A stretch of 64,000 nucleotides of DNA from contig JBAZMQ010000001.1 in assembly GCA_041649675.1 (NCBI GenBank), positions 64,792 to 128,791 of the forward strand, in the 5' to 3' direction. The stretch's first letter is position 1, and every line of letters starts with the position of its first letter. A program made the position numbers and the translations under genes. Shown here in pieces: positions 7,361-36,982 of this stretch. The notes beneath the pieces were generated by a model. That model was not told where the DNA came from. It ran no database searches and was given only the letters and a program-made list of their open reading frames with translations. Source of the stretch: Patescibacteria group bacterium. Its GTDB lineage: Bacteria; Patescibacteriota; Patescibacteriia; Buchananbacterales; UBA6539.

Positions 7361-9247
7361 ATGCCAAAAATTTTAGGAATTGATTTAGGAACCACAAATT
7401 CCTGTATGGCCATTATTGAGGGTGGTGAGCCCAAGGTGTTGGAAAACGCCGAGGGAGCGAGAACCACGCCATCAGTGGTGGCAATTAATAAATCCGGCGA
7501 AAGATTGGTTGGCCAAATTGCCAAGCGCCAAGCCGTAACTAACCCGGAAAACACTTTGTATTCAATCAAGCGGTTAATTGGCCGCAGATGGGAAGAAGAG
7601 GAAGTCCAAAGAGATTTGAAATTGATGCCATTTAAAATTGTTAAAGCGGGCGATGGTGTTAAGGTTGTGTTAAATGGCAAAGAATCTACGCCTCAGGAAA
7701 TTTCGGCTATGGTTTTGCAAAAGTTGAAAGCAGACGCAGAAAGTCGTTTGGGTGAAAAAATCACTGAAGCGATAATTACTGTGCCGGCCTATTTTAACGA
7801 TGCTCAGCGCCGGGCAACCAAAGATGCCGGGGAAATTGCCGGTTTGAAAGTTAAACAGATTATCAATGAACCAACCGCCGCGGCTTTAGCCTATGGGTTT
7901 GAAAAGAAGAAAGGCCAAAAGATTGCGGTTTACGATTTGGGCGGCGGGACGTTTGATATTTCCATTTTGGAAATTTCTCAAGATACCGTTGAAGTTAAAT
8001 CAACCAACGGGGATACTCATTTGGGCGGCGATGATTTTGATCAAGTTTTGATTGAATGGATTATTGCTGAATTTAAAAAAGATCAAGGCATTGATTTAGC
8101 TAAAGACAATTTAGCTTTGCAACGGATTAAAGAATCAGCCGAAAAAGCCAAAATTGAACTTTCCACCGCTCAAGAAACGGAAATCAATCAGCCGTTTATT
8201 ACCACTGATGCCGGTGGGCCAAAACATTTGGTTTTGAAATTAACTCGTTCTAAATTGGAAGAGTTAGTTGGCGAATTGGTTGAAAAAACCTTAGAGCCAT
8301 GCCGTAAGGCAATTGCTGACGCTAAGCTGGACGTGAAGGATATTGAAGAAGTAGTGATGGTTGGCGGAATGACTCGTATGCCTTTGGTTTTAAAGACCGT
8401 AGAAAAATATTTCGGCAAAAAACCAAATATTTCGGTTAATCCCGATGAAGTTGTCGCTTTGGGCGCAGCGGTTCAAGCTGGCGTTTTGCAAGGTGATGTT
8501 AAAGATGTGTTATTGCTTGATGTTACGCCGTTAACTTTAGGCATTGAAACCATGGGCGCGGTGGCTACCCCTTTAATTGAAAGAAATACCACCATTCCAA
8601 CTTCTAAATCACAAGTCTTTTCAACCGCTTCCGATAGCCAGCCCTCAGTTGAGATTCATATTTTGCAAGGTGAACGGCCAATGGCTCATGATAATAAAAC
8701 TTTGGGTCGGTTTATGCTAGACGGTATTCCGCCTGCTCCCAGAGGTGTGCCGCAAATTGAAGTGACGTTTGATATTGATGCTAATGGTATTTTGAATGTC
8801 TCGGCCAAAGATCGCGGAACCGGTAAAGAACAAAAAATTACCATTACCGCTTCGTCCGGACTTTCCAAAGACGAGATAGAAAAAATGAAAAAGGAAGCCG
8901 AAATTCATGCCAGTGATGATCAAAAAAAGAAAGAATTGATTGAAGCAAGAAATATGGCTGATACTTTGATTTATTCAAGTGAAAAAGGTGTTCGCGATGC
9001 CGGTGATAAGATTACTGATGATATTAAAAAGGATATTGAATCTAAGGTTGAAGAATTAAAGAAAATCAAGGATAGCGAAGATTTAGAAAGTATTAAACGC
9101 CGGACTCAGGAATTGAATGATGCGGCTCAAAAAATCGGTGAAGCAATCTATAAAGCTCAGCAAGCAGCCCAACCAGGCCAGCCAACGGGCAGCGAAGCTA
9201 AGCCGGAAGAAGGCGAAGTAGTTGACGATAAAGGTGACAAAAAATAA
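7361..9247 (+). CDS. dnaK: Molecular chaperone DnaK (Hsp70)
   Basis: 628 aa with canonical Hsp70 motifs ([27 protein letters not shown]). Confidence 0.97.
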
Positions 9248-11526: not shown

Positions 11527-12096
11527 ATGAGTACAAACCAATTTGGTTTAGTTGATTTGGAGTCAGTTAATCCAAAGATAAAAATTGACATTCGTTACGC
11601 TAGCCAAGATAATTTCACAAAGAAAAAACTCTATTCTAGCGCCAGATGTTTTTTACAAAAATCAACGGCTCAAAAATTAAGTGATATCCAAAACAAGCTA
11701 GAAAAGCAAGGATTAGGTTTAAAAATTTGGGATGGCTATCGGCCGCTTTCAGTTCAAAAAGAATTATGGAAGATTATGCCTGACGAGCGTTATATTGCTA
11801 ATCCCCAAACTGGTTCGGATCACAATCGAGGGATTGCCGTTGATTTAACCTTGGTTGATTTGCAGGGCAAGGATTTACTGCTGCCAACGGAATTTGATAA
11901 TTTCAGTCCCAAGGCTCACCGAAATTGTTTTGATTTAACCGAAGAACAGATTAAGAATCGAAAAATTTTGGAAGATATTATGGTCAAAAGCGGTTTTATT
12001 CCTTTTCCGACTGAATGGTGGCATTTTGCCGATAGCGAAGGTAAGGATTTACCAGTTTTGGATATTGATTTTGTGGCCCTATCGTCTAGCGGCTAG
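11527..12096 (+). CDS. D-alanyl-D-alanine dipeptidase-like peptidase M15 (VanX/DdpX family)
   Basis: IDIRYASQDNF, DGYRP...LW, SDHNRGIAVDL and EWWHF motifs. Start taken at the internal Met (ORF track 11500). Confidence 0.7.
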   Translation: MSTNQFGLVDLESVNPKIKIDIRYASQDNFTKKKLYSSARCFLQKSTAQKLSDIQNKLEKQGLGLKIWDGYRPLSVQKELWKIMPDERYIANPQTGSDHNRGIAVDLTLVDLQGKDLLLPTEFDNFSPKAHRNCFDLTEEQIKNRKILEDIMVKSGFIPFPTEWWHFADSEGKDLPVLDIDFVALSSSG

Positions 12097-12149
12097 GACA
12101 TCAGGTTCTCATCCTGAAAACCGGGGTCCGATTCCCCGTGGGGCTACCA
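12075..12149 (+). tRNA. tRNA, Glu-like (anticodon CUC by manual fold), with encoded CCA
   Basis: Manual cloverleaf: acceptor GGCCCTA/TGGGGCT, D-arm TCGTCTAGCGGCTAGGACA (Glu-type), anticodon stem TCAGG/CCTGA with loop TTCTCAT, T-arm CGGGG-TCCGATT-CCCCG, then A + CCA. Two oddities: C at position 55, and the first 22 nt overlap the 3' end of the upstream CDS. Confidence 0.6.
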
Positions 12150-12311: not shown

Positions 12312-13157
12312 ATGAACTATAAATATACTATGTCGGATTTAACTGCTATCGAAAAAAGAAAGCTTGAAAAACATTTTCAAATGGGAGGTGGGGTAGTTTG
12401 CAACTTTTCTAATAGAACTTTTGCAAATCAAGTTTTAGATTCTATTGGTTTAGATGTATATGTTGATAAATATAAAATTTTTGGTGAATCAAAGGCTAAT
12501 CGATTGAGGGCTCTCTGGAAGATCGAGAATAACTATACGATATCAAAACTTCTTATTGGCATTTTAGAATATTGGAAAGCAGAGCGGACTTTACTAAGTG
12601 TTGATGAAAGTATGTGGAGCGAAGCCTTTAACCCTGAGCTACATGAAGAATGTTTAAAAATAGCTGAGCGTTTAAAAAATAATACTGCGATGGGAGATTT
12701 AGATGCCTTAGAACAATATAATCTTGATGATAATTATGAATTATTAACTGATTCGATAAAGACAAGCATACTTAAAGATAAACCCGATCAAGCGATTGAT
12801 AGAATGCATACGTTTACAATAAAACGTATGCGCTTACTTTGTGACAAACACAATATTAAATATAGTAAGGATACTTTTCTCCATACTTTATTTGGTAACT
12901 ACGTGAAATTTTTGGAGGAAAATAAATTGATTCAATCAGAAATGTCATTAAGAATTTTGAAATCGTCAATTTCTATCTTGGACGCCTTTAACTCCGTAAG
13001 GAATAGCCATAGTTTAGCGCACGATAATGAAATTTTAAATAGAAATGAAAGTATACTAATTTTTAGTAATATTTTTAGTCTTATTAAATTTATTGATGCT
13101 ATAGAAGAGAGCTCTTCCAGCAACACAACTAATGAGATTGAGAATATCCCTTTTTAA
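12312..13157 (+). CDS. Abi-like protein with C-terminal HEPN-type motif (putative abortive-infection/toxin RNase)
   Basis: 281 aa, very AT-rich. C-terminal R-x6-H (VRNSHSLAHDN) resembles the HEPN Rx4-6H motif. Sits in the island next to the recombinase; its 3' end overlaps the recombinase 3' end by 29 nt. Confidence 0.45.
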   Translation: MNYKYTMSDLTAIEKRKLEKHFQMGGGVVCNFSNRTFANQVLDSIGLDVYVDKYKIFGESKANRLRALWKIENNYTISKLLIGILEYWKAERTLLSVDESMWSEAFNPELHEECLKIAERLKNNTAMGDLDALEQYNLDDNYELLTDSIKTSILKDKPDQAIDRMHTFTIKRMRLLCDKHNIKYSKDTFLHTLFGNYVKFLEENKLIQSEMSLRILKSSISILDAFNSVRNSHSLAHDNEILNRNESILIFSNIFSLIKFIDAIEESSSSNTTNEIENIPF

Positions 13158-14553
13158 TAAATTGTAGTTCGTCATCATAATCAACTCCATCAGGCGTAAC
13201 CCTGATGTTTTTTAATAGACTATCTATCAGCCTGCGCTTTTGTTCTCCGTTGGCTTGCTGGTAAGCGTGAACGGGATCACCCAGCAGACTGGCTAATTCT
13301 AATTTATGATTTAACCCACCGTCATCATTTGGATTAATTCTTTGCAACTCACTTTCAAGCTCAGCTATATTCTTGGCGTACTCGGCCCGCTTCAGGTCAA
13401 ACATATCTCTGGGAATCTCGCCATCTATATTTTTATCAATCAGCTTGCTTAGCCTTAATCTGGCTTGCCCGATTTGAAGAACAATTGATTCCTTCTTTTG
13501 AATCATGGCCAAGGCTAATGATTTTTTGGTTTTATGAGCTTGCTCAATCATCTCATCGACTTGGTCGGGCGTGAACCGTATCTTTGTTAATTCGTCTAAT
13601 ATCCAAGTCTCAACCAACTCTTCCTTTATAGGCTTCATGCTGCACAATTTATTACGGCAGTAGTAATAGTGGTATTTATGCTTTGATGTCGTTGACCGCA
13701 AGCGCTTTCCACAGAGACCGCAACTCAGAATATGGACAAATTTGTATTCGTTGACTTGCAACTTAGGTATTGCATGCCGTTTTTTGACGGCCTGTACTTT
13801 GCTATAAAGTTCTTCCGAGACTAATGGCTGATGTTGCCCTTGAAAGATCTGCCCCTTTACCGTGACAAAGCCCAGGTAATATTTATTATTCAAAAGCGTG
13901 CAGAGCTTTGTATATCTCATTTTATTGCCGAAACTACTCCGTAAGCCTTTGTTAAACATAATGGTCTCTAAATCAAGCAGTGAATATTCGCCAGTGGCAT
14001 ACAGTTTGAAACATTCCGAAATAAGCGGACCCATAATCGGATCCACTACACGTATGCTCTTGCCGCCCTTTACATAACCTGTCGGCACATTGCCGAATGG
14101 CGAATAACCCTGACTCAGCCGTTTGTACATGCCCTCTTTTACCCTGGTACTCAAAACACGAGTGTCATTTACCGCCATGACCGCTTTAACGTCAGCCATC
14201 AGCCTATCGCCGTTACTTTTGAGCTGAATGTTTTCCCGGCTTAGATGGATTTCCAAACCCTCGTCCATCAAATTACTGATTATCGCCCAGTCACGAAAGT
14301 TCCGACTGCTTCGGTCGACATCGTGAAAAATAATACCGGCAATATCATTCCGTGATTCAAGGTCGCCGATCATCTCGTAGAATTTTTTGCGTTTGGCAAT
14401 TTTTGATGCGCTCTGAACTTCCCGAAATTCTTTGGCAATGACAAGACTGTGACTATTCGCGTATGCGACAATAGCTTCACGTTGGGCATCCAAGGATACA
14501 CCGTCCCTTTCCTGCCCCTTTGAACTGACTCGATAATAGCTGAAATATTTCAT
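13129..14553 (-). CDS. Large serine recombinase (resolvase/invertase N-domain plus recombinase and zinc-ribbon/coiled-coil C-terminal domains)
   Basis: N-terminus YYRVSSKGQ..DGVSLDAQ with catalytic Ser and conserved R/D; 474-aa length; Cys cluster (CGLCGKRL...YYCRNKLC) typical of LSR zinc ribbon. Confidence 0.85.
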   Translation of the reverse strand: MKYFSYYRVSSKGQERDGVSLDAQREAIVAYANSHSLVIAKEFREVQSASKIAKRKKFYEMIGDLESRNDIAGIIFHDVDRSSRNFRDWAIISNLMDEGLEIHLSRENIQLKSNGDRLMADVKAVMAVNDTRVLSTRVKEGMYKRLSQGYSPFGNVPTGYVKGGKSIRVVDPIMGPLISECFKLYATGEYSLLDLETIMFNKGLRSSFGNKMRYTKLCTLLNNKYYLGFVTVKGQIFQGQHQPLVSEELYSKVQAVKKRHAIPKLQVNEYKFVHILSCGLCGKRLRSTTSKHKYHYYYCRNKLCSMKPIKEELVETWILDELTKIRFTPDQVDEMIEQAHKTKKSLALAMIQKKESIVLQIGQARLRLSKLIDKNIDGEIPRDMFDLKRAEYAKNIAELESELQRINPNDDGGLNHKLELASLLGDPVHAYQQANGEQKRRLIDSLLKNIRVTPDGVDYDDELQFIKKGYSQSH

Positions 14554-14634: not shown

Positions 14635-14685
14635 TCTGCATCTCAGTTTCCCGTAACCTTTAGGTTACGGAAACTGAGATGCAGA
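14635..14685. repeat. 51-bp near-perfect palindrome (24-nt arms around TTTA) immediately upstream of the serine recombinase gene
   Basis: TCTGCATCTCAGTTTCCCGTAACC-ttta-GGTTACGGAAACTGAGATGCAGA; single 1-nt bulge. Confidence 0.8.
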
Positions 14686-14697
14686 ATTAGATTACGG

Positions 14698-15639
14698 CTA
14701 CGTTAGCCGATAAAAATGTTTTCCCTTGACCCCGACTTCCTTCTCAAGTTTTTTATCCTTAACCATCCGATCAAGCAATTCATCTGTAGCCGACTCGCCA
14801 ATTAAACTTTTTACAGATTCAACTAAATCCTGTCTTGATTTGATCCCGTTATCTTTTATCTCTTCGATAATTTTTGTCCAAGCCATGTCATTCTTGTCTT
14901 CCTCCTGCTTTGTCGTTCCTGCATAACTAAATTTTACCGATTTGTCAGATTTATCAATTTTTAACTGGAACGTATCCATCTCTTCGGCGATTCTTAATTT
15001 GCCCTGAGTAACTTCGATAATGGTTTTTTTATTACGTGCGGCAACCATTAAATGACAATCCACAGCAGCCAAAATATCCGACGACCCTCTTAGGTTAATA
15101 TTTGATTGACCACGTTCGTTACCCTTTCTTAAATGGTGGGTAATTATTACAGTAACTCCTAAGTTTGTAATCTTGTTAAACAGCGAAAAAACATCCGACA
15201 CCTGTCCCGCAATATTCTCATCTTTGCCGTGGATTCTAACAAAGCTGTCAATACATACGAGCCTAATTTTTTTAGCTTTTATGAACCTTAGTAAGTCTTC
15301 TTCGTCTTCAAGTTTATCAATCCGAAACCCATGTTTACTGGAGATGTGAATCACTCCCTTATTTGTCATGTTGACTAACTTGAACCGTTCCTTCATAAAA
15401 CTTAAATTATTTTCCTCATCGATTATCAGCACCTTCCCTTTTAAACAGTCAAATTGGTCAAATAGTTTTTCACCAAGTGAAACAGATTTTGCAATTTCGA
15501 TCAGTATCCAGGTTTTAAAGTTTCCAGGATGGCCAGACAGAATTGTGATTCCTTGGGCAGGAATTAAATCCTTAATTAACCATTTCGGTGCTTTTAGATT
15601 TTTGCGCAATAATTTTGCGACTGCTATAGTATGTAACAT
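14698..15639 (-). CDS. RecA-like/AAA_25-type ATPase (RepA-like replication/primase-helicase loader of mobile elements)
   Basis: Walker A-like GHPGNFKT, Walker B VLIIDEEN, and a C-terminal winged-helix-like tail; family assignment from memory. Confidence 0.55.
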   Translation of the reverse strand: MLHTIAVAKLLRKNLKAPKWLIKDLIPAQGITILSGHPGNFKTWILIEIAKSVSLGEKLFDQFDCLKGKVLIIDEENNLSFMKERFKLVNMTNKGVIHISSKHGFRIDKLEDEEDLLRFIKAKKIRLVCIDSFVRIHGKDENIAGQVSDVFSLFNKITNLGVTVIITHHLRKGNERGQSNINLRGSSDILAAVDCHLMVAARNKKTIIEVTQGKLRIAEEMDTFQLKIDKSDKSVKFSYAGTTKQEEDKNDMAWTKIIEEIKDNGIKSRQDLVESVKSLIGESATDELLDRMVKDKKLEKEVGVKGKHFYRLT

Positions 15640-15981
15640 ACAAGTTTAGATTATTGAGATTAATTAGAACGACTAAAACTAAAACTAGCCAGGCCCATCT
15701 CGGCAATTAAAAAACATCTCGTCATAAATTTCTAAAATAACGTCTATATATTCATATGATATTTTTTGCTGTTGCTTGTATTGCATAAAAAATAAACAAA
15801 AAAAGCCCGCAACAGCATATGAACTAAGTGTTCACACACTATTGCGGGCTCCTTACCGCTTCTGACCATCACTCGCGATGGATTTTCCTACAAAAATGTA
15901 GTACCGTCTTTAATTTTTAATATTCAATTTAGTCACCTTACACCTTATTTTAAAAAAAGTCAAGACTAAGCCTGTGTATAA

Positions 15982-16476
15982 TTATTTTAATTTTAATAAA
16001 AAATCTACAATAAATTTTACAAAAGGCTCACTTTTTTCCTGGGCAAATTTTTTGGCTTTACGCTCATCTTCAATAAAAAGGGAATCTCGTTCTATTGGAG
16101 GTTGTCCAGTTTTTTTATCAATAATTAATTGATTGAATCGATCAATCTCATCGGCATAATCATAAATACCGTCTACGGCTATACTGTTATATGTTCCACA
16201 TTCACAGATGGCAGCCATCTCTTCATATTTAACAACTAATGTGGTTTTATTCCCAACTTTCATTTTTGCTCGACTACCGTGTATATCTGCAACAATCATT
16301 TTTTTGCAATTAGAACAAACCCAAGTTTCAATTCCAGCCTCAGGGTTAATCTGTATTCTACCGTTTGTTATAATTTCATTTGTAGGCCTTGCCTTATTCG
16401 CCTCTTCAAGTGATCCAAAAATTTTGATTTTTTCTTGGTTGATAGAATCTAGTAATTTTTTATTCATGTAAGTCAT
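15982..16476 (-). CDS. Hypothetical protein with Cys4 zinc-ribbon-like motif (CSNC...CECG)
   Basis: 164 aa; no family recognised. Confidence 0.4.
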   Translation of the reverse strand: MTYMNKKLLDSINQEKIKIFGSLEEANKARPTNEIITNGRIQINPEAGIETWVCSNCKKMIVADIHGSRAKMKVGNKTTLVVKYEEMAAICECGTYNSIAVDGIYDYADEIDRFNQLIIDKKTGQPPIERDSLFIEDERKAKKFAQEKSEPFVKFIVDFLLKLK

Positions 16477-16848
16477 ACAGTTTAAATTAAATCTACCTTT
16501 ATTTTACACAAAAAAATACCGTTTTGTCCAAACGGAGTCAAATTCAGTCGTATTTTACAAGTTTACCCCTTGGCGATAGGGTAATTCTTTTTTTACTATA
16601 TGCGGCTCTAAATCGTCCGTTTTAACATCCTAGCGCCGTGATTAAACTCGAACTGGCTGTCAATAACGCTAGCCTAAAGCGATCTGAAATTATGAGTTTA
16701 AATACATATAGAGCTTGCCCCGAAATAGCATAGAGAGAATTTAAAGAATATTTTGATCAATTTTTGAGGCTGCAACTGCTATGCTTCGAATGATTTGATT
16801 TAAAATAATCGACAATTTCAGACGTAAAGTATTTGAAGGCAAGTAGTT

Positions 16849-17061
16849 TTACTTTGGCTGAATCATTTCCCAAAGATACTGTTTCTCTAGCTCCAGCGAT
16901 TTTATTTTTGCGTCATGCAGCATTTCCTGATTTTTGATTTCAACATCAATAGCTTCTAGTCGTGCCATTACCTCCAAAAATTTATCCGGATTAACCCCTT
17001 TCTTCGCTCGCTTCTTTCTAAGATGTTTAACGTCCGCTCCTTGAACTTTTTTATTTGTCAT
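16849..17061 (-). CDS. Small basic coiled-coil protein (70 aa), unknown
   Basis: Lys/Arg-rich N-terminus and heptad-like C-terminus; could be a DNA-binding regulator. Confidence 0.3.
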   Translation of the reverse strand: MTNKKVQGADVKHLRKKRAKKGVNPDKFLEVMARLEAIDVEIKNQEMLHDAKIKSLELEKQYLWEMIQPK

Positions 17062-17072
17062 ATTGTGTTCGA

Positions 17073-17591
17073 TTATTTATATTTTCTTATACAGTCTACT
17101 TTACAGACACTTCTTTGGGTACCAGTTAAATTATTATCACTGCATTCATTTATGCAATCTTCGTATTTTGATTGAACCGATATATATTTTTGTCTTGATA
17201 TATATTTAATCGAGTAAACAATGCCGATCAATAATGTTACTACGACTATAGGCACAAATATACCAATAATAAATTGTTTATTAATCGAAGTAGTTTTTAT
17301 ATTACCTAACTGCGGTCTACTTTGTTTAGTCGCTTTCCATATCGATTTAATTATAAAATATAATCCTAAAATATTCAGGGCAAAGGCGATAAATGATGCA
17401 CCACCCCCGACCAGATATCCAACGTAATTACAAACAATAATTAACCCAAAACCAATAGCTAATGATAACAAAAGATTGTCGGTTGTTTTTTCGACAAATT
17501 TTGGTTCTTTCATAGAGTTAGTTTTAAAAAAATAATTAATATTGTTGTAATCAAAAAACCCACCGCTAGGGCGGTAGCTTGCGCTACCCAT
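17073..17591 (-). CDS. Membrane protein (3 TM) with Cys-rich C-terminal tail (CINECSDN...CKVDCIRKYK)
   Basis: Hydrophobic profile; the likely start is the internal Met (MKEPKF). Confidence 0.4.
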   Translation of the reverse strand: MGSASYRPSGGFFDYNNINYFFKTNSMKEPKFVEKTTDNLLLSLAIGFGLIIVCNYVGYLVGGGASFIAFALNILGLYFIIKSIWKATKQSRPQLGNIKTTSINKQFIIGIFVPIVVVTLLIGIVYSIKYISRQKYISVQSKYEDCINECSDNNLTGTQRSVCKVDCIRKYK

Positions 17592-17609
17592 ACTCCTTTC
17601 GGAATATGA

Positions 17610-17657
17610 CCTGGTTAAGGGATACCCTAAACGATGGGATCTATGTCCTTAACCAGG
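17610..17657. repeat. Inverted repeat CCTGGTTAAGGGA...TCCTTAACCAGG (13-bp arms, ~23-bp spacer)
   Basis: Located between the divergent membrane gene and gajA. Confidence 0.6.
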
Positions 17658-17810
17658 ATTTTCAGCCATGCCCCACAAATGCAAGGTTTAGGCTGGTTTG
17701 ATTGTACCCATTAATATTAATCTTTTTGCTAAATTTTGTAAATATTCGCTTGATTTTTGGCGTAAAAGGAGCTAATGTAAATTTAAAGCTATAAAAAATA
17801 ACCAATAAAT

Positions 17811-19724
17811 ATGAAGATTAAAAGACTAAAAATTGAAAATTTCCGATCAATTAAATCCTTGGACATTGAATTGGATGACACTTCGGTTTTTATCGGCGCT
17901 AATAATGCTGGTAAGTCTTCAATACTGGAAGCAGTACGAATTGCTTTATCTCGAAGATGGGGTCAACAAGGGACTGGGTTTACTGAGGATGATATTCATT
18001 TAGTTAACGATAAGATAGATCCTCGGAATGCGCCACCAGTAAAAATTCGTTTTGAGTTTGAAGAAGGATCATCGGGAGAATGGCCTACGGACATGGTGGC
18101 TGAACTTGAACAAATAATGACTCTTACGCCCACAAATTTAAATAAAGTTACGTTTACGATATCTTATATATGGAATCCCGAAAAGGAGTTGTTTGAAACA
18201 ACCTGGCAATTCCTGAATTCATCGGGAGATCCATTCCCGTCGGCTAGTAGATCAGTTAACTTCTCTGGATTTTTTAATTATATAATTTTTCTTTGGGTAG
18301 GTGCTTTACGAGATGCAGATGATGAGTTTACATCACATTCACGTAATTGGGGTGGTCTTTTGAAATCCATTAAAATTCCAAAAGAAATCGAAGAGGAGAT
18401 AAAAAATGATCTCGATGTTCTTGATGAAAAATTACTTCGGGCTGATCCCAAATTTTTGCAGATATCAGAAACCATTGGAAAAGCAACTGAAATTACTATT
18501 GAAAATGGTCCTGGTTCTGCAAAAATTCGTATGCTGCCAATAAATGTTTGGGATATGATTACACGAGCTGGTATAATTCTTAAAAATGAAGACTTGCGCC
18601 CCTGGCTTCCGCTTAATCATCATGGTCAAGGCCTTCAAAGTTTATCAATTATTTTTCTGTGCCATGCTGCAGCGGCTCAAAAACTTGTTGAGAATAATTT
18701 TGGTGCTGAACCCATATACGCAATTGAAGAGCCGGAAGTTCATCTACATCCTCAGGCTGCTCGTACTTTATGGTCCAAGATGACTGAAATTGCTGGGCAA
18801 AAATTAATAACAACTCATTCGCCTTATTTTGTTCAGAACGTGCCACTCCATAGCCTTAGAGTTGTTCGTTTGCAGGATGATTCTACTTCAATTTCATTTT
18901 TACCAAAAAAGATTGAGTCTGATATACCGTGGACAGAAGACGTTGAAAATTTTGTTAAAGGAGCAGGCAGAAATTATTTTAAATTGAATAAGCTAACCAA
19001 CTCAATTGATGCCATTCAAAGTTTTGATGAAAATATTATGAATGATTTAGTACATTGCTGGAAAGTAGATAATGACGACCTAATATCGAATAAAATAAAA
19101 GAATTACGACGTAAGTCTAGCGTACTTGTCTCAGAAGAAGAAGAAAGAAATTTATCTTTTCAAGGAAGACGTATTCGTGGAGAAATATTTTTTGCACGTT
19201 TTTGGGTTTTGGCGGAAGGGGTATCTGAATATTTGTTACTCAAAGCCATTGGTGATGCTTATGAATTTGATTTAGATCAATATGGTGTAGCAATTATTGA
19301 TTTTCAGAATAATGGAAGGCCAGATATCTATGCAGCTTTAGCAGAGGCTTTTAAAATCCCGTGGTTTATGATTACTGACGGCGATGGTGCTGGAGAAGCC
19401 ATGAGAAAGCAACTATCAAAAAGAGGATTTGATGCTAAATATCTTCAAGAACATTCTGATTTTTTGCAATCGCCAAATACTCTTGAGGCTCAGCTACTTG
19501 CTGATGGAAATGGACCTCTACTTAGAAAAATTATTGCAGACACTGGTGATACTAGTGCATTGACATGCTCAGTTGATGATTTTAAAAATAAACTTAGCAA
19601 TAAAAAAACTCCCTGTATGAGTCGTCTCGCTTCATTAGTCTCAAGAGATATAACTCTCGCAAAGAAAATGCCAGAAAAATTTATTTCAATAATTGAAAGA
19701 ATTAAATCTGACCATCAATTATGA
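17811..19724 (+). CDS. gajA: Gabija GajA-like OLD-family protein: N-terminal ABC-type ATPase plus C-terminal Toprim nuclease
   Basis: N-terminus KIENFRSIKSLDIEL..VFIGANNAGKSSILEAV (OLD/AAA_15-like P-loop). C-terminus Toprim_OLD-like (VLAEGVSEYLLLKAIG...IIDFQNNG...ITDGDGAG with E and DxD). The TGA stop overlaps the ATG of the downstream helicase (ATGA). Confidence 0.75.
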   Translation: MKIKRLKIENFRSIKSLDIELDDTSVFIGANNAGKSSILEAVRIALSRRWGQQGTGFTEDDIHLVNDKIDPRNAPPVKIRFEFEEGSSGEWPTDMVAELEQIMTLTPTNLNKVTFTISYIWNPEKELFETTWQFLNSSGDPFPSASRSVNFSGFFNYIIFLWVGALRDADDEFTSHSRNWGGLLKSIKIPKEIEEEIKNDLDVLDEKLLRADPKFLQISETIGKATEITIENGPGSAKIRMLPINVWDMITRAGIILKNEDLRPWLPLNHHGQGLQSLSIIFLCHAAAAQKLVENNFGAEPIYAIEEPEVHLHPQAARTLWSKMTEIAGQKLITTHSPYFVQNVPLHSLRVVRLQDDSTSISFLPKKIESDIPWTEDVENFVKGAGRNYFKLNKLTNSIDAIQSFDENIMNDLVHCWKVDNDDLISNKIKELRRKSSVLVSEEEERNLSFQGRRIRGEIFFARFWVLAEGVSEYLLLKAIGDAYEFDLDQYGVAIIDFQNNGRPDIYAALAEAFKIPWFMITDGDGAGEAMRKQLSKRGFDAKYLQEHSDFLQSPNTLEAQLLADGNGPLLRKIIADTGDTSALTCSVDDFKNKLSNKKTPCMSRLASLVSRDITLAKKMPEKFISIIERIKSDHQL

Positions 19725-21616
19725 CTTCGAATTTTGATGAATCGTTTATTGAACTTAGTCCAATTCAACGTGATGCCGTTAACTGGGGTGATGGCGCTCT
19801 TTTAGTTCTTGCTGGCCCCGGCGCAGGGAAAACAAGAGTTCTTACTACCCGCATTGCCAAATTAATTTCTGATAATCCTGAACGAAAATTTAAGATCTTA
19901 GCATTAACATTTACCACCAAAGCTGCATCCGAAATGCATGATCGCGTAGAGACGCTAATACCTGGAGTTGTTGATAATAGAACATTTATCGGAACATTCC
20001 ATGCTTATTGCACTCAAATTTTACGGCAGCATGGTTCTCATATCAACATTCATCCTGATTTTAGCATATTTTCCCAAAGAGAAGATCAGGAAGCTCTTCT
20101 GCTTGATGCAATTAATTATTCAATAAAGCAAGGGAAAAAATTCTCAATTGATGACGTAAAATTGCTGGACACAATAAAAATTTTGAAATCTCGTTTAATT
20201 GTTCCTGAGAAAACATTACTAAATATTAACAACCCACATCTCAAGGAGGTATACGAACTATATGAGCAAGCATTGAAGAGTGAAAATGGAATAGATTTTG
20301 AAGGGCTCATCTTGGAAACTTGCAGATTACTCGCAAAGATGCCCGCAATTTCAGCCAGAATAAGACAATCATATCCCTATTGGCTGATTGATGAATTTCA
20401 GGACACCTCACCATCTCAGTATTGGCTCTTACATTATCTTGCCGGCGATCAATTTAAAAATATTTTCGTCGTTGCCGATGACGATCAGATAATTTATCAT
20501 TGGGCAGGTGCTAGTTATAGGCAGATAGAAAAATTTAGGGAAGAATATAAACCAGAGCTTATCCAACTTGTCGAGAATCATCGATGTCCACCTGAAATTG
20601 TTGATATGGCAAATCAATTAGTTGCTTATAATACCCAAAGAACACCTGACAAAAAACCCACAACTCCTGGAAGAGATATTCCTTTAGACGCCGTGCAAGT
20701 GAAAATTTTCGGCAATGATAGGGATGAATATGCGTCAATCTCCAATGCTATTTATTTACAAGGGGAGGGATCCTGGGGAAAGACAATAATTTTAGGCAGG
20801 ACAAAATCATTACTTGAATCTATGATAGAAAGTCTCAAATTAAAAGGTGTAAGGGCGGTGATATCACAAAGGAGAGACAATTTTATCTCACCGCAATTTA
20901 TTTGGTTGCAAGCAATGATTGATCAAATAATCCATCCTACCAATAAACGTATTTTTAATATTTTTGCATATGCGGCCAATAGGGTATGTGGCCTAGAATT
21001 CGACCCAATACTATTAATTGCCGAAGCAGAATCGGTGAGCAAAAATTACATTGAACATTGGTCAGAGATAGTCATGTCGTCCGATAATGATGTGGCAAAA
21101 AAATTGGGATCTTTAATTCAACAGCTCATCCAATCTAGGCAAAGTTGGAAAAAAATAGTCAAGGATGCTATAAGTACCTTACTTGAAACTGGTCGAGTTA
21201 CACAGGATGCCGTCAGTGACGCGGATGATGATTATAGAGCTTGGACCGCATGTTTAAGAGAAATTCAATCTGAAATTGGTCAAGACTTAGATCTTTCAGA
21301 TGTTGTTCAGGGAATAGCTCTCCGTTCAAAAGAACCTCCAATTGTACCTAATACGGTGACGCTCATGACAATACATGCAGCCAAAGGGCTTGAATTTGAA
21401 ATTGTGTATATCATCGGACTCGCAGAAGGAGAAATGCCATCCTGGCAAAGTTGTAAAAAGGGAGATACCTCACCTGAAATGGAGGAGGAGCGTAGAAATT
21501 GTTTTGTTGCAATTACCCGGACACAAGAAAAACTTGTGTTATCTTCTTCTGGGGTTTATAGGGGATTTGAAAAAAAATCATCCCGTTTTTTAAAAGAGAT
21601 GAAATTAATCTCATAG
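19721..21616 (+). CDS. gajB: Gabija GajB-like UvrD/PcrA/Rep-family SF1 helicase
   Basis: Walker A AGPGAGKTRVLT, motif II DEFQDTSPSQY, and a C-terminal helicase domain (TIHAAKGLEF...). Translationally coupled to gajA. Confidence 0.75.
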   Translation: MTSNFDESFIELSPIQRDAVNWGDGALLVLAGPGAGKTRVLTTRIAKLISDNPERKFKILALTFTTKAASEMHDRVETLIPGVVDNRTFIGTFHAYCTQILRQHGSHINIHPDFSIFSQREDQEALLLDAINYSIKQGKKFSIDDVKLLDTIKILKSRLIVPEKTLLNINNPHLKEVYELYEQALKSENGIDFEGLILETCRLLAKMPAISARIRQSYPYWLIDEFQDTSPSQYWLLHYLAGDQFKNIFVVADDDQIIYHWAGASYRQIEKFREEYKPELIQLVENHRCPPEIVDMANQLVAYNTQRTPDKKPTTPGRDIPLDAVQVKIFGNDRDEYASISNAIYLQGEGSWGKTIILGRTKSLLESMIESLKLKGVRAVISQRRDNFISPQFIWLQAMIDQIIHPTNKRIFNIFAYAANRVCGLEFDPILLIAEAESVSKNYIEHWSEIVMSSDNDVAKKLGSLIQQLIQSRQSWKKIVKDAISTLLETGRVTQDAVSDADDDYRAWTACLREIQSEIGQDLDLSDVVQGIALRSKEPPIVPNTVTLMTIHAAKGLEFEIVYIIGLAEGEMPSWQSCKKGDTSPEMEEERRNCFVAITRTQEKLVLSSSGVYRGFEKKSSRFLKEMKLIS

Positions 21617-21941: not shown

Positions 21942-24218
21942 CTAGTTGACTGCCGGCGGTTTAATGAAGAACTGCTGGCCGATCGGGTCACGGCTATTTC
22001 CTAGGAAATAGGTTTTGACAAACGACAGTTCTTTGGTGTCACTGTCATAGCGCAAGACTTCTATTCCCTGGTGATCGAGGCTGCCATTATTGTAGTTGTA
22101 GGCGCTGCGAGCATAGACCAGACCGTCAGGTCCGACCTTGACGTAGTAGGCGCCGTACTGGGCATAACGGCTGACAACCGCATTGTCGGCAAAGCTATAG
22201 ACGGCAATTTCACCTTTACCATAGTAGGGATTGCCACCAGCTCCAATAAAGGCAAGGCTGCTGTCTGGCAAGAAATCAACTGCACCGGCAAAATCACCTA
22301 GGCCGGAGTAACCGAACTGGTGTTGGAAATTATGCAGGTCATAGACGCTGACCGAACCCCGTGCAGAGGAGTAGCTGGTTTGGAAGAAATAGTTGCCTAA
22401 CGGGTCAGTCAGGGCGAGGTGATGTCCATAGCTAACCGGCATAACCGAGGCATTCAGCGTATCCGTGGATAGATCCACCAGATTCCAGCTACCGTTTTCC
22501 ACTTGAGATAGTGTGCCATTATTCAAGCGGACGGTGTTGTAGCCGCCATCCACGTTAATAGGGAAGTTGCTATCCACAAGTGTTCGGGTCGTAATGTCGT
22601 ACTTGTTGTTTTCTAAGTAGCAGAACCGACTATCGGCCGAAAACAACGGCAGGTAATACGAGGTAGTCTCGTCTGATGCATAATACAAATCATTAGTGCT
22701 GATGGATGCGGGGAAAGGCAGAGGATCGCCGTTTAGCGTGTGATCCGAAGTCTGATAGACATTCCCTTTGACGTCAACAACATATTGCCCGTCAGGTGTT
22801 CCGGCTAGCATTATCACTTCGGGCAAAGCACCCCAGATCACGCTCTTAGTTAGATTAACCACCAGTGTGGCCGACAGGTCCTCGGTGGGCATATAAAGCA
22901 GCTCATCTTGGGTTGTGGTTAAACTTTGATCACAGGTGATTTTGTAAGTGATTGAATTACCCACCTTGTTGCCGGAATCATCTTGCCCTTGCAAAACGAA
23001 CTCATTGGTTCCGGGTTGTAGGGTGGCTAAGTAGAGAATCTTGCCGTAGAGGTCGGTTTTATCAGTAGGGATGACTTGGTCGCCAATTTGTACTTGGGTA
23101 ACCCGCCAGTCAAATACGGTTGTCAAGGGATAGCTGGTCAGATTGGTCGTCACCTTGATTTCGTCGGGCCAATCGGGTGGAGTTGGCTGAAAAGCAAACC
23201 CCGAAATCAGAACTGCCTGGGTCGCACCATTGCTTGGCGGCTTACCTTCAAACTGCCACAAGTTCAAGTGGACTCTTTCCTCGCCGGGCGTTGGCACAAG
23301 CGGACCTTCATATGACCATTTTTTAATCAAGGTGTCGGGATCTGTGGGCGGACTATCAAGATATTTACCTTGATAAGTGCGCATTTCCACTTTGCCCGGA
23401 CTCCAGATCAGGTAAGTGGTGATGTCGGCGTTTATGTCCTGGTGGAACCGATTACAGTTATCCATACCTACGAGACATTGGCCACAGGGTGGAACGGCGT
23501 ATTGGCAGTTGTTTTCGTCTGCGGCGTTGCCAAACTGACTGAATTCAAAGAAATCAATTTCCCGGTTGTTTGGGTCGGTGTCAGTATCATCCCACAGGAA
23601 AATACCGAAAACCAAATAAGAATCAGACGCCAGGGCGGGGTAGTGTTTCTTAAGTTGAACAATATACACGCCGTAGCCAAACGATTGGTCAAGAATTACT
23701 TCACTTGACTGCCATTTGCCGTCCTGTTCTTTGACTGCCAAATGAAGAACGCCGCTATCATCAACCCAGGCATTCTTTGGACTATACGAATTTGGTCCAG
23801 GACCAACCGGCGAAGGGTAACACTTTTTGGTCCACGGCAATCCGGAAAAATCAAACGCTAGGTTTTCGCTTTCGCATTCGTCTTCGCCCTCGCCTTCACC
23901 GCTTGGGATAACCATCAGCGTGGCTACGTTAGAATAGACACAGCCGGCTGAATTTTTGGCAAATGCCCGGTATTGTCCCGCATCATTTTCAGTGACAACG
24001 GGAAGTGATAGAATTTCTCCACCGGCATCGGCAACTATGATGTCATCTTTCAACCAGCCGATTGTTTCGGCGTTTTCAACTCCGACGCTAAACTGAACAT
24101 TCGCGCCGACGCTGACCGTCTGTGATACTGGCTGCTCGATGATTTTTGGCAGTTGAGGACAACCGGCCAAAAGTATCATTGCCGCTACAATCACAATCAC
24201 ATTCCATTTGCTTTTCAT
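21942..24218 (-). CDS. Secreted lipoprotein with glycoside hydrolase family 16 (beta-glucanase/laminarinase-like) domain plus Ig-like and beta-propeller-like regions
   Basis: Lipobox LLAGC; GH16 catalytic motif E-I-D-F-F-E (REIDFFEFSQ); (GE)n linker PSGEGEGEDECESE. Gene is markedly GC-rich relative to its neighbours. Confidence 0.55.
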   Translation of the reverse strand: MKSKWNVIVIVAAMILLAGCPQLPKIIEQPVSQTVSVGANVQFSVGVENAETIGWLKDDIIVADAGGEILSLPVVTENDAGQYRAFAKNSAGCVYSNVATLMVIPSGEGEGEDECESENLAFDFSGLPWTKKCYPSPVGPGPNSYSPKNAWVDDSGVLHLAVKEQDGKWQSSEVILDQSFGYGVYIVQLKKHYPALASDSYLVFGIFLWDDTDTDPNNREIDFFEFSQFGNAADENNCQYAVPPCGQCLVGMDNCNRFHQDINADITTYLIWSPGKVEMRTYQGKYLDSPPTDPDTLIKKWSYEGPLVPTPGEERVHLNLWQFEGKPPSNGATQAVLISGFAFQPTPPDWPDEIKVTTNLTSYPLTTVFDWRVTQVQIGDQVIPTDKTDLYGKILYLATLQPGTNEFVLQGQDDSGNKVGNSITYKITCDQSLTTTQDELLYMPTEDLSATLVVNLTKSVIWGALPEVIMLAGTPDGQYVVDVKGNVYQTSDHTLNGDPLPFPASISTNDLYYASDETTSYYLPLFSADSRFCYLENNKYDITTRTLVDSNFPINVDGGYNTVRLNNGTLSQVENGSWNLVDLSTDTLNASVMPVSYGHHLALTDPLGNYFFQTSYSSARGSVSVYDLHNFQHQFGYSGLGDFAGAVDFLPDSSLAFIGAGGNPYYGKGEIAVYSFADNAVVSRYAQYGAYYVKVGPDGLVYARSAYNYNNGSLDHQGIEVLRYDSDTKELSFVKTYFLGNSRDPIGQQFFIKPPAVN

Positions 24219-33178: not shown

Positions 33179-33298
33179 GGACCGACACCAAAATCGGTTT
33201 TTTTGTGATGTTGTAATGTGTTAGTCATAGGCTTCAATATTAGGTTGGGGCTTTGGTTTAAAATTGGCAGATCTCAAATAAAGGAAAGGTATTGTGCC

Positions 33299-36200
33299 AT
33301 GAAGAATCGAGTATTGTTGACACTGTTGGTGCTGGCGGTTGTTTTATTGGGCGTTGGTTGCCCTAATTCGGAACCAGAGTTCTCCGTGCCCCGTTACGAC
33401 GCGGCCGGAAACTACCTTGGAACAATGGCACTGTCCAGCTTGGACGTTGTCCAGGATCCACAGGTGGTTTTAAATCCGCCAGACAACCAGATTATCCTGA
33501 CGGCAAAAAACTTCGCGCTGGAGCGAGCGTATGGAGAATTTACCATTTGGGTTAGTAAAGAATACCCAGAGGTGGAACTTTCCTTACAGCTCTTTGGCCC
33601 TAAGAAGGCGGAAGAAGCGGAAAAAAATCTGAGCCATGAGCAGTTGGCAGCATTATCAATATTTGCCAATGCGATTGGGATGGGCCAGCATTTTTCAAGC
33701 TGGACTGATTTTATTCAGGTCCGCAATGGTACAGTCACCGCGACTATACCATTTCCCGAGTTGGTTGTCCGGATGACGGTTATCCGACTTGAATCGGCCT
33801 CAGCTACCAATAGTGATGCTGCCTTTGTCTTTTCCAACCCCTTGCCGTTTGATGAAGGGGAAGGTGAAGAAGGTGAAGGCGAAGGTGAGATTGAAGGCCA
33901 AAATGAAGGCGAAGGTGGAACCGAAGGTGAGATTGAAGGTGAAACACCGGATAATTGCGGCGGCGGAGTCGCCACCATTTCAGTGACGTTCAAACCGAAT
34001 GTCGCACTTTTCAATCTGACCTCACCCACTCCAGCCACAAGCGTGATTGAGTTTGATGTGGCTGGTATGATCGGCGCCAATCTCGCTGCGGCCAGCTACG
34101 TTATTGGTGCAGACACCTTGGTTTACGGACCAAAAGATCTGCAGCCGATTGTTAACTGTTCGGCAAAACTTTTGGTCTGTGATAACCAGAATGATGCAAA
34201 TCAAATTGCAAGTATTATCGTTATATACGACAAGACCAAAGTGCCGACGCCGGCTGGTGGTTTGCCTTCTCTTGGACAGTTGTCGGGCGAAGTCAAACGT
34301 TTGACAGTTGCTTATACCACCAGTAAGTCAATCACCATTGATAAGGCGCCTGGGATTGATGACGCGGACGGAATTGTCTGCGGCAGTGTTTCAGGAGCTA
34401 TTCCTGCGGGTGCCAAAGTGGCAGTACGAACCAAAATCAATGGCAACTGGAAACCATTTCCGCCGTTTGTGGAAGTCGTGAATGGCAAGTGGTGCCACAA
34501 TATCTATGTCGCGACAGGCGACAACCGGTACAGCGAGATCGAAGCCTGGCTAATGGCAGCGGACGCGGACTTTCCGTGGACCGATGCCAAAGCCGACGAT
34601 GTGCCATTGGCGACAACCGTTTACAAGCGGGTGCCGTCAATCAGCATCACTTCATTTCCGCGACCCGGCACCGGCGATCCCGAAATTGTGCGCGTGGATA
34701 CAATCGTATCCGACGCCAGTAAGTACAAATGCGTGATCGAGGCGTTGACAATCGTGGATGGCCACCAGCAATGGGTGATTCAACTCACCAGCGGACAACC
34801 GTTATTGTCGCTTGACGCTTTCAGCCAAGCCGCCGGGACTGTTTCCACTTACCGCGTGCTCAAGTATTGGGCCTGGTTGGTGGAGTATCCGTTGCCCGGG
34901 GCAATTCCTCAGTGTACGGATATCGGTATTGATTGTCTGGGTGAAACGCCGCCATCGGTTCCCGGCTGGGTAGCCTGGAACTGGGTTGGTCTTAACCCGG
35001 CTATTGATACCACGCCACCGGTTATAACCCTCTTGGGTGACAATCCGGCAATCGTTGACGTGTTTACGCCGTGGGTTGACCCGGGCGTTACGATCACGGA
35101 TCCTGATGACGGAGACCTGACAGCAAACCTGGTTGTGACCGGCGCCGTTAACACGTCTGTTCTGGGAACCTACATGGTTCATTACAACGTTTCAGACGCA
35201 TCAGGCAATCCGGCAACGGAAGTGATTCGGACAGTCGTGGTCGTTGATCGCGGTTTTCCGGTGATTACGTTGCCCGTTAGCAGCCCGCAAAGCTGGGACG
35301 TTGGTGTGACATACGTTGCTTCTGTGGCAACGGTTACGGACAACTACGACACCGGCCTTACGGCTCAAGTGGTAGTCAGCGTTGATACGACCAAGCCGGG
35401 ATCAGGCAGTGTAACCTACACGGCCATTGATTCCAGCGGTAATACGACCACGGTTATTTTGGTCGTCAATGTCGTAGACAATACACCGCCAGTGATTGAG
35501 CCAATCGCCGACATAACCATGCACCAATGGGATTTCCAAACAGTGCAGTTGACGGCCACGGACAATATCCCAACCGGGTTGGTTTGGAAGTCGGTCGTTT
35601 CGTCTGACCCGTTGTTGGAACTCGACTTCACGCAAGACGGCTTGGTGCGCTTGTATACACATGATGTCGCTGGTGTTGCTACGGTTACGGTGACCCTGGC
35701 TGATGCCTCGGGTCTGGAAACCATTGCGATATTCCAAGTCACGGTTTGTGAGTGTCAGGGCCCGTTGATTGAGGTTCTCCAGTCGCCGTCATATGGCACT
35801 TGGGACAACCTGCTGGTTAAAGTGACTTGCTACAATCCGAATGACCTGGTGCTTTTCACGCAAGTTAGCGTGCCCAGTGACCTGGAAGCAATATTGCCTC
35901 CCAAACCCGCCGGCCCTTGGTGGCCCAAAGATAATTGGGGCCTTGCCGGTCTTAAGGTGATCGATCCGATCACTAAAGAGGCAAATATTCAGGTGGCCAC
36001 CGGTGGGTTTGACAACACTGCCAACGCAATCAGTGTGGCGGCGGTTCAGGCGGTTGTTAATGGTGTTCCTTTGGCGGCAAGCGATTTGCCACCGGGTAAC
36101 GACTTGCAGCAGGCGTACATTGGTATCGAGCCGTTCCAAATCCGCGGCACATTGAATTCCTTGTTTATAGACAAGACCCCGAAGATCGTTCCGCTTTTCG

Positions 36201-36841: not shown

Positions 36842-36982
36842 TTGCTATTTGTGTTCAGCCCTTAGATTGTTTAATCTGAGGGCTTCTTTTTTTACTTAAT
36901 AAACCTAAAGAGGGCATTTTTGTTGTTTAATTTGACAAAGTATTCAAAATATGATATAAATTAGATAGCTTAAAACTTAGCT

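Follow-up and report, generated by a model that had tools for sequence, protein, structure and literature searches.

LOOT RNAs head a hypervariable slot of mostly membrane or secreted proteins in mobile elements of Patescibacteria

Described systems closest to the locus

The LOOT motif (Rfam RF03000) was described by Weinberg et al. (2017; PMC5737381), and the Rfam 14 paper (PMC7779021) lists it as a metagenome-based RNA. A host, a mobile-element setting and downstream genes for membrane or secreted proteins are absent from these published descriptions (PMC5737381, its supplement not covered, and PMC7779021), and a literature search returned no functional study of LOOT and no paper on serine-recombinase prophages of the Candidate Phyla Radiation (CPR). 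A LOOT RNA is described here on the minus strand of a 64,000-nucleotide (nt) stretch of DNA from a Patescibacteria group bacterium (contig JBAZMQ010000001.1), referred to below as the window, where it lies upstream of three co-oriented open reading frames (ORFs) that are read in the order ORF3, ORF2, ORF1. Across CPR elements, LOOT heads a hypervariable gene slot that holds mostly genes for membrane or secreted proteins. The assignment of LOOT to Patescibacteria and their elements, a long-range helix within the RNA and the link to membrane and secreted proteins are new to the best of current knowledge, with the 2017 supplement again outside the material covered.

The superinfection-exclusion or lysogenic-conversion genes of temperate phages that infect Gram-positive bacteria include ltp of Streptococcus phage TP-J34 and sie2009 of lactococcal phages. 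Genes of such lysogeny modules encode a small membrane protein or lipoprotein and are neighbours of the integrase or of the regulatory region; related phages differ in them, and the lysogen expresses them. The LOOT locus resembles these modules in that ORF3 encodes a protein with three transmembrane (TM) segments in the equivalent slot, and Lipoprotein_Ltp and DUF4352 occur in LOOT slots elsewhere (by Pfam, DUF4352 is matched by four LOOT-downstream proteins and Lipoprotein_Ltp by one). It differs from them in that no conserved structured RNA is known upstream of the phage modules and in that ORF3 and ORF2 have no sequence similarity to known Sie proteins, so that an exclusion function would be assigned by analogy. 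P2/P4-like phages and satellites carry hotspots of accessory and defence genes, and phage morons belong to the same background. As in these hotspots, cargo with a fast turnover (restriction-modification methylases, nucleases and other defence genes among it) lies behind a conserved flank, which is LOOT in this case, and defence systems are present in LOOT elements too (Gabija in the window, and the cyclic-oligonucleotide-based system CBASS in another locus, L245). However, the conserved flank is an RNA gene and not a core protein gene, the hosts are CPR bacteria, and the cargo consists mainly of membrane and secreted proteins rather than classical defence systems.

The LOOT RNA and its long-range helix

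The program cmscan matched the minus strand of the window to the complete Rfam model of LOOT (17694-17573; model positions 1-121 of 121) with 93.6 bits against a gathering score of 46.4 (E = 1.3e-16). The window RNA is a full-length, high-scoring member of the family that has all helices of the model, the CCUAAAC/GCAUGG internal loop and the GAAA loop. Hairpin 1 carries the internal loop and is followed by the long hairpin 2, whose lower stem is a perfect 11-bp inverted repeat (17610-17620 with 17647-17657), by a hairpin with a CCGAAAGG loop and by a terminal GNRA hairpin. The published model stops short of the 3′ tail and contains neither the 11-bp long-range helix described below nor the U-run. 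With the tail included, the RNA covers 17553 to 17694; the tail and U-run (17572-17553) lie outside the Rfam model and were delimited against 60 further LOOTs.

In an alignment of 61 LOOTs reaching past the 3′ end of the Rfam model (alignment A4), RNAalifold and direct counting both give an 11-bp helix in which the 5′ side of the hairpin 2 apex pairs with the 3′ tail just before the U-rich run. Compensatory changes were found at all 11 pairs, and 93% of the cells in the helix are paired compared with 35-49% when the partner strand is slid; none of 500 shuffles reached the observed pairing values. Free of any alignment, cognate apex/tail duplexes have a mean energy of -21.7 kcal/mol and non-cognate duplexes one of -12.4 kcal/mol. 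The helix is strand-specific, as expected of RNA, because U-G pairs are frequent. Together with the lower stem of hairpin 2 it forms a pseudoknot. By comparison, the apical stem that Rfam draws for hairpin 2 has a median of -7.4 kcal/mol against -22.8 kcal/mol for the long-range helix, and it showed no clear covariation in the MAFFT alignment. In the window, the 5′ strand of the helix (AUCCCAUCGUU, 17630 to 17640, minus strand; columns 71-81) lies in the hairpin 2 apex, and the 3′ strand (AGCGGUGGGUU, 17557 to 17567, minus strand; columns 158-168) leads into the U-run at 17558-17553. Ten of the 11 positions pair here (17640-17630 with 17567-17557), followed by six U residues.

LOOTs outside the window were collected with an exact-match pattern built from the most conserved parts of the RNA (CCTAAACC N8-16 GGCATGG N40-70 CCGAAAG), which matched at least 119 loci in species-representative genomes, at least 120 in metagenomes and 5 in viral contigs. 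All loci were set on the orientation of LOOT, and their ORFs were called and clustered; the locus counts given in the rest of this text hold among the matches listed. The gathering score of Rfam was passed by 18 of 20 randomly picked pattern loci. Loci L006-L244 come nearly all from metagenome-assembled genomes (MAGs) of Patescibacteria. The five viral-contig matches comprise one true LOOT, which lies beside an apparent terminase gene (judged by eye), and three group I introns. These introns (L001, L004 and L005, from IMG/VR contigs) score 83 bits as group I introns, and they matched the pattern because a CCUAAAC...GCAUGG motif in P8 and GAAA loops are common to them and LOOT.

The P8/L9 modules of group I introns are a further described structure that LOOT resembles without belonging to it. 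The family has an invariant GAAA loop in hairpin 3 as well as a GNRA loop, and the CCUAAAC/GCAUGG internal loop of hairpin 1 is taken here to be a variant of the 11-nt GAAA-tetraloop receptor, a reading that is consistent with the occurrence of the same motif in P8 of the matched introns. The invariant GAAA loop and the receptor-like loop suggest a compact fold. What is conserved is mainly structure, in the helices, in the tetraloops and in the receptor-like internal loop, whereas few junction bases are conserved. LOOT was also considered as a fragment of a group I intron. This was rejected, as no more than the CCUAAAC/GCAUGG motif and the GAAA loops are common to both: LOOT has neither P3-P7 nor J8/7, and the LOOT model gives the introns just 27-28 bits.

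The gene slot downstream of LOOT

A same-strand ORF follows LOOT in 174 of the 177 loci with enough downstream sequence, at a median distance of 34 nt from the U-run to the start codon. The genes in this position have little in common. BLAST sorts the 129 unique first downstream genes into 90 clusters and Pfam sorts them into 79 families, and most genes have no family at all; the families that were found include zinc-ribbon proteins, N6/N4 methylases, DUF4352, trypsin-like proteases, bPH, Ltp lipoprotein, DUF2726, DUF559 and nucleases. What recurs is a hydrophobic TM or signal segment, which is present in 94 of the 129 genes (73%) and in 67 of the 90 clusters. The first divergent gene upstream of LOOT has such a segment in 13 of 125 cases (10%; Fisher p = 1.3e-25 against the downstream genes), and background ORFs more than 1.5 kb away have one in 197 of 1162 (17%; odds ratio 13, Fisher p = 1.7e-38).

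The surroundings of LOOT are those of mobile DNA. A serine recombinase is the commonest neighbour, being present in 104 of 245 loci and in 72 of the 120 (60%) that have at least 2.5 kb of upstream flank. It usually lies upstream and divergent; in 12 unique loci, the window among them, it lies downstream on the strand of LOOT (class B). Other recurrent neighbour clusters look like tyrosine integrases, terL, terS and ParB-methylases, of which the ParB_N/methylase and recombinase assignments were checked with Pfam. Genes for tRNA or tmRNA lie near several LOOT elements, which suggests that these elements integrate beside tRNA or tmRNA genes, as at the tRNA-Glu gene of the window. The 3′ part of a tmRNA gene adjoins the serine recombinase of the LOOT element in L050 (positions 1-195), and tRNA genes lie near the elements of L220, L194 and L047. 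The recombinase, the integrase-like and terL/terS-like genes and the tRNA and tmRNA neighbours together indicate that LOOT is a component of integrative, phage-like CPR elements. Defence-type families near other LOOTs are scattered (AAA_14, nSTAND and PIN, each in at most two loci); a cluster found in four loci has an AAA_15/OLD-like N-terminus by eye, and Gabija itself was not screened for there.

Upstream of LOOT, an ACAAY motif occurs within 6-26 nt in 101 of 179 unique loci, compared with 7 of 179 for a control window. In the window this motif is TACAAT (17701 to 17706, minus strand), which is probably the -10 box of a LOOT promoter as judged from sequence; TTTACA-17-TAATAT (17742-17714) is an alternative promoter candidate. 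A terminator-like hairpin with a T-run was located after LOOT (17577-17560, minus strand), the start of ORF3 lies 39 nt from the U-run, and no promoter-like site was found between LOOT and ORF3 in the window. LOOT would be transcribed from its own promoter with TACAAT as -10 box, and the long-range helix with its U-run would either terminate transcription, in part or conditionally, or form a stable structure at the 5′ end. Transcripts that read through would then express ORF3 and ORF2 and stop at a terminator-like hairpin at 16535-16519. In this scheme ORF2 would be a small basic helical protein, and ORF3 a 3-TM protein with a twin-CX3C tail that is probably directed outwards; by position and analogy, both would be element-specific accessory genes of the lysogeny-expressed kind. 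ORF1 would form a separate unit with its own promoter-like site and a strong terminator. It can be proposed, tentatively, that LOOT is a cis-acting leader on CPR mobile elements, a conditional terminator or pseudoknot switch that gates inserted envelope or defence cargo, and that ORF3 and ORF2 are one such cargo with a new exclusion-type function. That the region as a whole is the accessory arm of a ~9.5-kb serine-recombinase integrative element (a prophage remnant or satellite-like element) beside tRNA-Glu is the best full explanation and a fairly probable one.

Attenuator leaders, riboswitches and type III toxin-antitoxin loci share with LOOT the succession of promoter, structured RNA, helix with U-run and a same-strand gene within about 34 nt. 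Unlike the targets of attenuators and riboswitches, the genes downstream of LOOT are mutually unrelated, which leaves no metabolite logic, and few junction nucleotides are conserved. A further difference is that the terminator-like helix takes its 5′ strand from the loop of another hairpin, about 75 nt upstream, which makes it part of a pseudoknot. A direct copy of the locus's own LOOT linker and hairpin 2 5′ strand makes up the 13-24 nt immediately ahead of the downstream start codon in 20 of 183 unique loci (11%). The copy varies from locus to locus and matches the LOOT of its own locus, so that the 3′ strand of hairpin 2 could pair with the translation start region. Loci with the copy include L028, L204, L073, L124, L090 and L215, and in most of the 20 the gene that comes first downstream is apparently one for a DNA methyltransferase. 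The window has no such repeat of hairpin 2 ahead of the downstream start codon.

Several points weigh against the proposed leader and its cargo. The terminator, the read-through and the promoter are all predictions from sequence. Rfam classes LOOT as a small RNA (sRNA), and a helix with a U-run suits a stand-alone RNA equally well. In some loci a clear TTGACA-17-TAATAT promoter and a Shine-Dalgarno sequence lie between LOOT and the next gene, and co-transcription is therefore not universal. Because the pattern used to draw the locus set was strict, the sample of LOOTs is a biased one. For the proteins, ORF2 and ORF3 found only themselves among 5.8 billion protein clusters in a word-indexed search, which is less sensitive than an exhaustive HMMER search; Shine-Dalgarno sequences are absent for both, codon scores are weak, and any function label for the two would be by analogy only. 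Finally, att-like direct repeats bounding the island were sought and not found, and the same holds for a second boundary.

The alternative that survives these data best is that LOOT is a stand-alone, trans-acting sRNA and that its adjacency to ORF3 is incidental, the RNA and the cargo sharing a recombination hotspot. The promoter-like motif of its own, the 3′ helix with U-run, and the separate promoter and Shine-Dalgarno sequence that follow LOOT in some loci would all be expected of such an RNA, and conservation that is mostly structural and takes in few junction bases speaks against a leader that senses a ligand. On the other hand, with a same-strand arrangement in 98% of loci and a median gap of 34 nt, most loci, among them the window, have no space for a promoter. 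The copies of hairpin 2 at the start region in 11% of loci link LOOT physically to the translation start, and the strong bias towards proteins with hydrophobic segments points to a functional link. No copy of the hairpin 2 apex sequence was found outside LOOT on either strand of the window with up to three mismatches, nor was a trans target of the apex found there. A stand-alone sRNA is a possibility to be entertained with reserve.

Genes of the window and the element that carries them

The preliminary description had placed three minus-strand ORFs at 15982-16476, 16849-17061 and 17073-17591, between a replication ATPase and Gabija in a mobile-element setting, and all of this was borne out. 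It had also taken the third frame, ORF3, as a 172-aa protein that is coding throughout (17073-17591). This had to be corrected, since the first 78 nt (26 codons) of the frame overlap LOOT and its ATG at 17591 lies inside the RNA. The gene starts at the ATG at 17513, as in the public gene call WC508_00455, and encodes 146 aa (17073 to 17513, minus strand). Its product has three hydrophobic segments and a C-terminal CX3C...CX3C tail, in agreement with the 3-TM protein with a Cys-rich tail first noted. ORF2 (16849 to 17061, minus strand; WC508_00450) starts 11 nt after ORF3 and encodes 70 aa with a basic N-terminus and a helical, K/E-rich C-terminus.

The statement that the three ORFs have no recognisable domains also holds. 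No Pfam match above cut-off was found for any of them (the best was DUF6487 with 16.5 bits against 24), and none had a match in PHROGs, so that no mapping to known phage families was obtained there. In PADLOC-DB 2.0, ORF1 and ORF3 were without match; a match of ORF2 to Ppl (E = 1e-3) was discounted as a coiled-coil match. No relatives of ORF2 or ORF3 were found in the 244 pattern loci by local phmmer (E <= 1). Codon-usage log-odds in the annotated frame are 0.21 bits per codon for ORF1, 0.13 for ORF2 and 0.11 for ORF3, and they are strongly negative off-frame. For reference, long genes score 0.275 +/- 0.08 (window minimum 0.168) and shadow ORFs -0.05 +/- 0.12, with 4-6.5% of shadow ORFs scoring as high as ORF2 or ORF3. 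An ORF of 146 or 164 codons is very unlikely to arise by chance in DNA of 33% GC, whereas one of 70 codons is not significant alone, about 15 being estimated for the window.

These figures bear on the alternative that ORF2, and possibly ORF3, are not genes and that the DNA is non-coding or decaying and carries chance ORFs. The restriction of each protein to a self-match, codon scores below those of every long gene of the window and equalled by some shadow ORFs, the missing Shine-Dalgarno sequences and the repeated occurrence of 70-codon ORFs by chance are what such DNA would give. Against it stand the improbability of a 146-codon frame at 33% GC, the three well-formed TM segments and regular CX3C...CX3C motif of ORF3, the strongly negative off-frame scores and the independent public gene calls, which include both genes. 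A same-strand gene also occupies this position in 174 of 177 LOOT loci, 73% with a hydrophobic segment. Chance ORFs are therefore an unlikely explanation. ORF1 and ORF3 are clearly real ORFs, and ORF2 is plausibly a real gene, mainly by its position and codon score.

Within the proposed leader arrangement, ORF3 and ORF2 appear to be fillers of the cargo slot and lineage-specific cargo. By analogy with the phage modules described above, an accessory, exclusion-type role is plausible for them; a superinfection-exclusion or envelope-modifying function would be the most likely candidate, to be held with rather low confidence. The preliminary description had seen accessory genes in all three ORFs. 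This stands for ORF3 and ORF2, which lie in a slot that is hypervariable across some 200 loci, and fails for ORF1, which resembles element backbone.

Tight packing, as first described, applies to ORF3 and ORF2 (11 nt) and not to ORF2 and ORF1 (372 nt) or to ORF1 and the ATPase gene (342 nt). Seven terminator-like sites were found in the region compared with 1.6 expected. A terminator-like hairpin (16535-16519) with seven T (16510 to 16535, minus strand) would close the ORF3-ORF2 unit; it is overlapped by a promoter-like site for ORF1, TGGACA-18-TAAAAT (16530-16501, minus strand). After ORF1 follows a strong terminator-like hairpin with a 20-bp stem (15849-15805) and a T-run (15797 to 15850, minus strand). 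ORF1, ORF2 and ORF3 do not behave as one module, and terminator-like sites separate them. The 372-nt spacer between ORF2 and ORF1 has no excess of RNA structure (z = 0.28), and besides LOOT no Rfam match at gathering score was found in 15500-17900; the single extra sub-threshold match there (mir-268-like, 15783-15867) falls on the terminator-like hairpin that follows ORF1.

An imperfect 18-nt inverted repeat connects the spacer with LOOT (16661-16678 and 17687-17704, both arms CAAT-N6-AGCCTAAA), one arm spanning the LOOT 5′ end and the putative -10 box. It is probably a chance occurrence. Outside the repeat, the similarity of the spacer to LOOT does not exceed that of shuffled sequence, and an inversion of the LOOT-ORF3-ORF2 segment was rejected for this reason. 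An inversion is not needed to account for the gene order either, because the co-directional arrangement recurs in 11 other unique loci.

ORF1 (15982 to 16476, minus strand; 164 aa, or 161 aa from the ATG at 16467) encodes a Cys4 zinc-ribbon protein, with a predicted metal site, of a rare conserved family. The word-indexed search gave no match but the protein itself for ORF1 too, whereas an exhaustive HMMER search of 1.84 billion representatives gave nine distant homologs of 137-166 aa with 30-44% identity. The four cysteines seen at the outset (C54, C57, C91 and C93) are invariant in the 10 sequences of the family alignment (alignment A1), as are a W-x-C-x2-C motif, INGxRA, EMAAxCxC with its C-x-C, and the C-terminal DYLLKLK. 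All 10 members end in ...LLK/GLK (consensus DYLLKLK), and the invariant C-terminus suggests a tag or an interaction peptide. An AlphaFold2 model of ORF1 has a mean confidence (pLDDT) of 75.5, with N-terminal helices, a six-strand beta core that bears the four cysteines and three C-terminal helices, and it matches no solved fold. A weak PDB profile match to the HDAC6 ZnF-UBP domain (E = 0.004) was treated as a similarity of cysteine spacing only; that domain binds free C-termini. A scan of viral contigs for the ORF1 family gave no match, and the 244 pattern loci gave two weak matches to the ORF1 profile, one of which is the zinc-ribbon protein of L233.

The context of these proteins sets ORF1 apart from the slot. 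In L245 (GCA_030700065.1), a LOOT lies about 200 nt from the ORF1 homolog and divergent from it, and the homolog is followed by three small genes and the serine recombinase. CBASS and a second LOOT lie beyond the recombinase; on the other side are a restriction-modification system and an S24 repressor. The two opposed LOOTs of this locus (7690-7804 and 15124-15237) flank the ORF1 homolog, the serine recombinase and the four-gene CBASS operon, and the second is divergent from CBASS in parallel to the window LOOT and Gabija. L249 has the gene order of L245 with a fragmented recombinase. A 50-aa ORF comes after the homolog in L247 and L248; the next gene in L247 encodes a protein of 460 aa that matches an AAA lid weakly. 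L233 repeats the order of the window, with LOOT, two TM proteins, a K/E-rich helical protein, a zinc-ribbon-winged-helix protein, a P-loop protein and the recombinase; the zinc-ribbon core of its protein aligns with the ORF1 family at 80% probability in hhalign (E = 1.4e-5). The nine homologs of ORF1 occur without relatives of ORF2 or ORF3. ORF1 thus looks like element backbone, because its homologs, where context is available, adjoin LOOT upstream of a serine recombinase. It is most likely backbone, neither cargo nor defence, and probably a nucleic-acid-binding regulator or an accessory factor of replication or recombination.

These results leave little of the idea, central to the preliminary description, that ORF1-ORF3 form one new three-gene anti-phage or anti-defence system, perhaps with Gabija. 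The ORFs are co-oriented, have no known family and lie in an element with Gabija and an Abi_C gene, and the genes downstream of LOOT in L233 run in a similar succession (TM proteins, helical protein, zinc-ribbon protein). However, the 372- and 342-nt gaps and the terminator-like hairpins split the ORFs into separate units, ORF1 homologs head an operon towards the recombinase without relatives of ORF2 or ORF3, and no credible match in PADLOC, PHROGs or Pfam was obtained, the Ppl match of ORF2 having been discounted. The 244 pattern loci hold no similarity to ORF1, ORF2 or ORF3 save the two weak ORF1-profile matches. Co-occurrence of the trio elsewhere is not demonstrable, as ORF2 and ORF3 match only themselves, and this comes near to the outcome that the preliminary description had itself named as counting against the module. 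Nor do the ORFs look like additional components of Gabija, which is already complete as two genes on the other strand, with gajA divergent from LOOT. A three-gene system is accordingly very unlikely.

The order of RNA gene, terminator and protein gene also resembles type III toxin-antitoxin loci such as ToxIN, but that ORF3 is a small membrane toxin with LOOT or ORF2 as antitoxin, in a toxin-antitoxin or abortive infection system, is highly improbable: small TM proteins are often toxins and the setting is a mobile element, yet LOOT lacks tandem repeats and does not lie antisense to ORF3, some 90 unrelated protein families behind the same RNA cannot be explained by specific pairing, and in the window the hairpin 2 apex sequence occurs only within LOOT, with no hairpin 2 repeat before the start codon.

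The remaining genes of the island fit the integrative element proposed above. Database self-matches of the window's proteins are labelled as MAG: Patescibacteria group bacterium and stem from a contig of 173,776 bp. The gene order is tRNA-Glu (plus strand), Abi_C (plus), large serine recombinase (minus), AAA_25 ATPase (minus), ORF1, ORF2, ORF3 and LOOT (minus), and GajA and GajB (plus). The tRNA-Glu(CUC) gene (12075-12149, plus) is the likely integration flank. The gene with an Abi_C domain (12312-13157, plus; Pfam 5.6e-09) overlaps the 3′ end of the recombinase gene with its own 3′ end and is the second defence-type gene of the island besides Gabija. The large serine recombinase (13129-14553, minus) is a member of cluster c0, the one present in 104 of 245 LOOT loci, and has the Pfam domains Resolvase, Recombinase and Zn_ribbon_recom. 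The AAA_25 (RepA/DnaB-like) ATPase (14698-15639, minus; Pfam AAA_25 8.9e-26, with PHROGs primase/helicase families) is the replication module of the element, and its cluster also adjoins a serine recombinase in L144 and L223. Between the ATPase and recombinase genes lies a perfect palindrome of 23 bp whose loop is TAAA (TCTGCATCTCAGTTTCCGTAACC / GGTTACGGGAAACTGAGATGCAGA, 14635-14685). No T-run follows it, and it may serve as operator, origin, processing site or recombination site. The two-gene Gabija system is complete, with gajA (17811-19724, plus; 720 bits in PADLOC) and gajB (19721-21616, plus; 741 bits), both also matched by Pfam. The serine recombinase, the AAA_25 ATPase and tRNA-Glu are all present in the island; att ends were not found, and the island holds no structural phage genes.

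GC content is about 33-42% from tRNA-Glu to Gabija, near the value of most of the window. It reaches 49-54% at 22001-24000, 34001-37000 and 59001-60000 and is otherwise about 36%. These high-GC stretches coincide with large ORFs, such as those of 758 aa (21942-24218) and 1207 aa (33218-36841), and no rRNA or other Rfam family was found in them.

For annotation, the locus shows that the N-terminus of a called ORF was an RNA gene and that three unknown genes standing side by side differ in origin. LOOT, for which the published descriptions gave neither host nor function, becomes a testable system. If the leader reading is true, the elements would carry in LOOT a portable RNA head for the expression of membrane and secreted proteins, and in some of them LOOT could also pair with the region where translation of its cargo starts. 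CPR bacteria, a large group with few cultured members, live attached to other cells and rely on surface proteins. A fast-exchanging slot for envelope proteins that is headed by an RNA would bear on host attachment, phage exclusion and gene flow in CPR bacteria.

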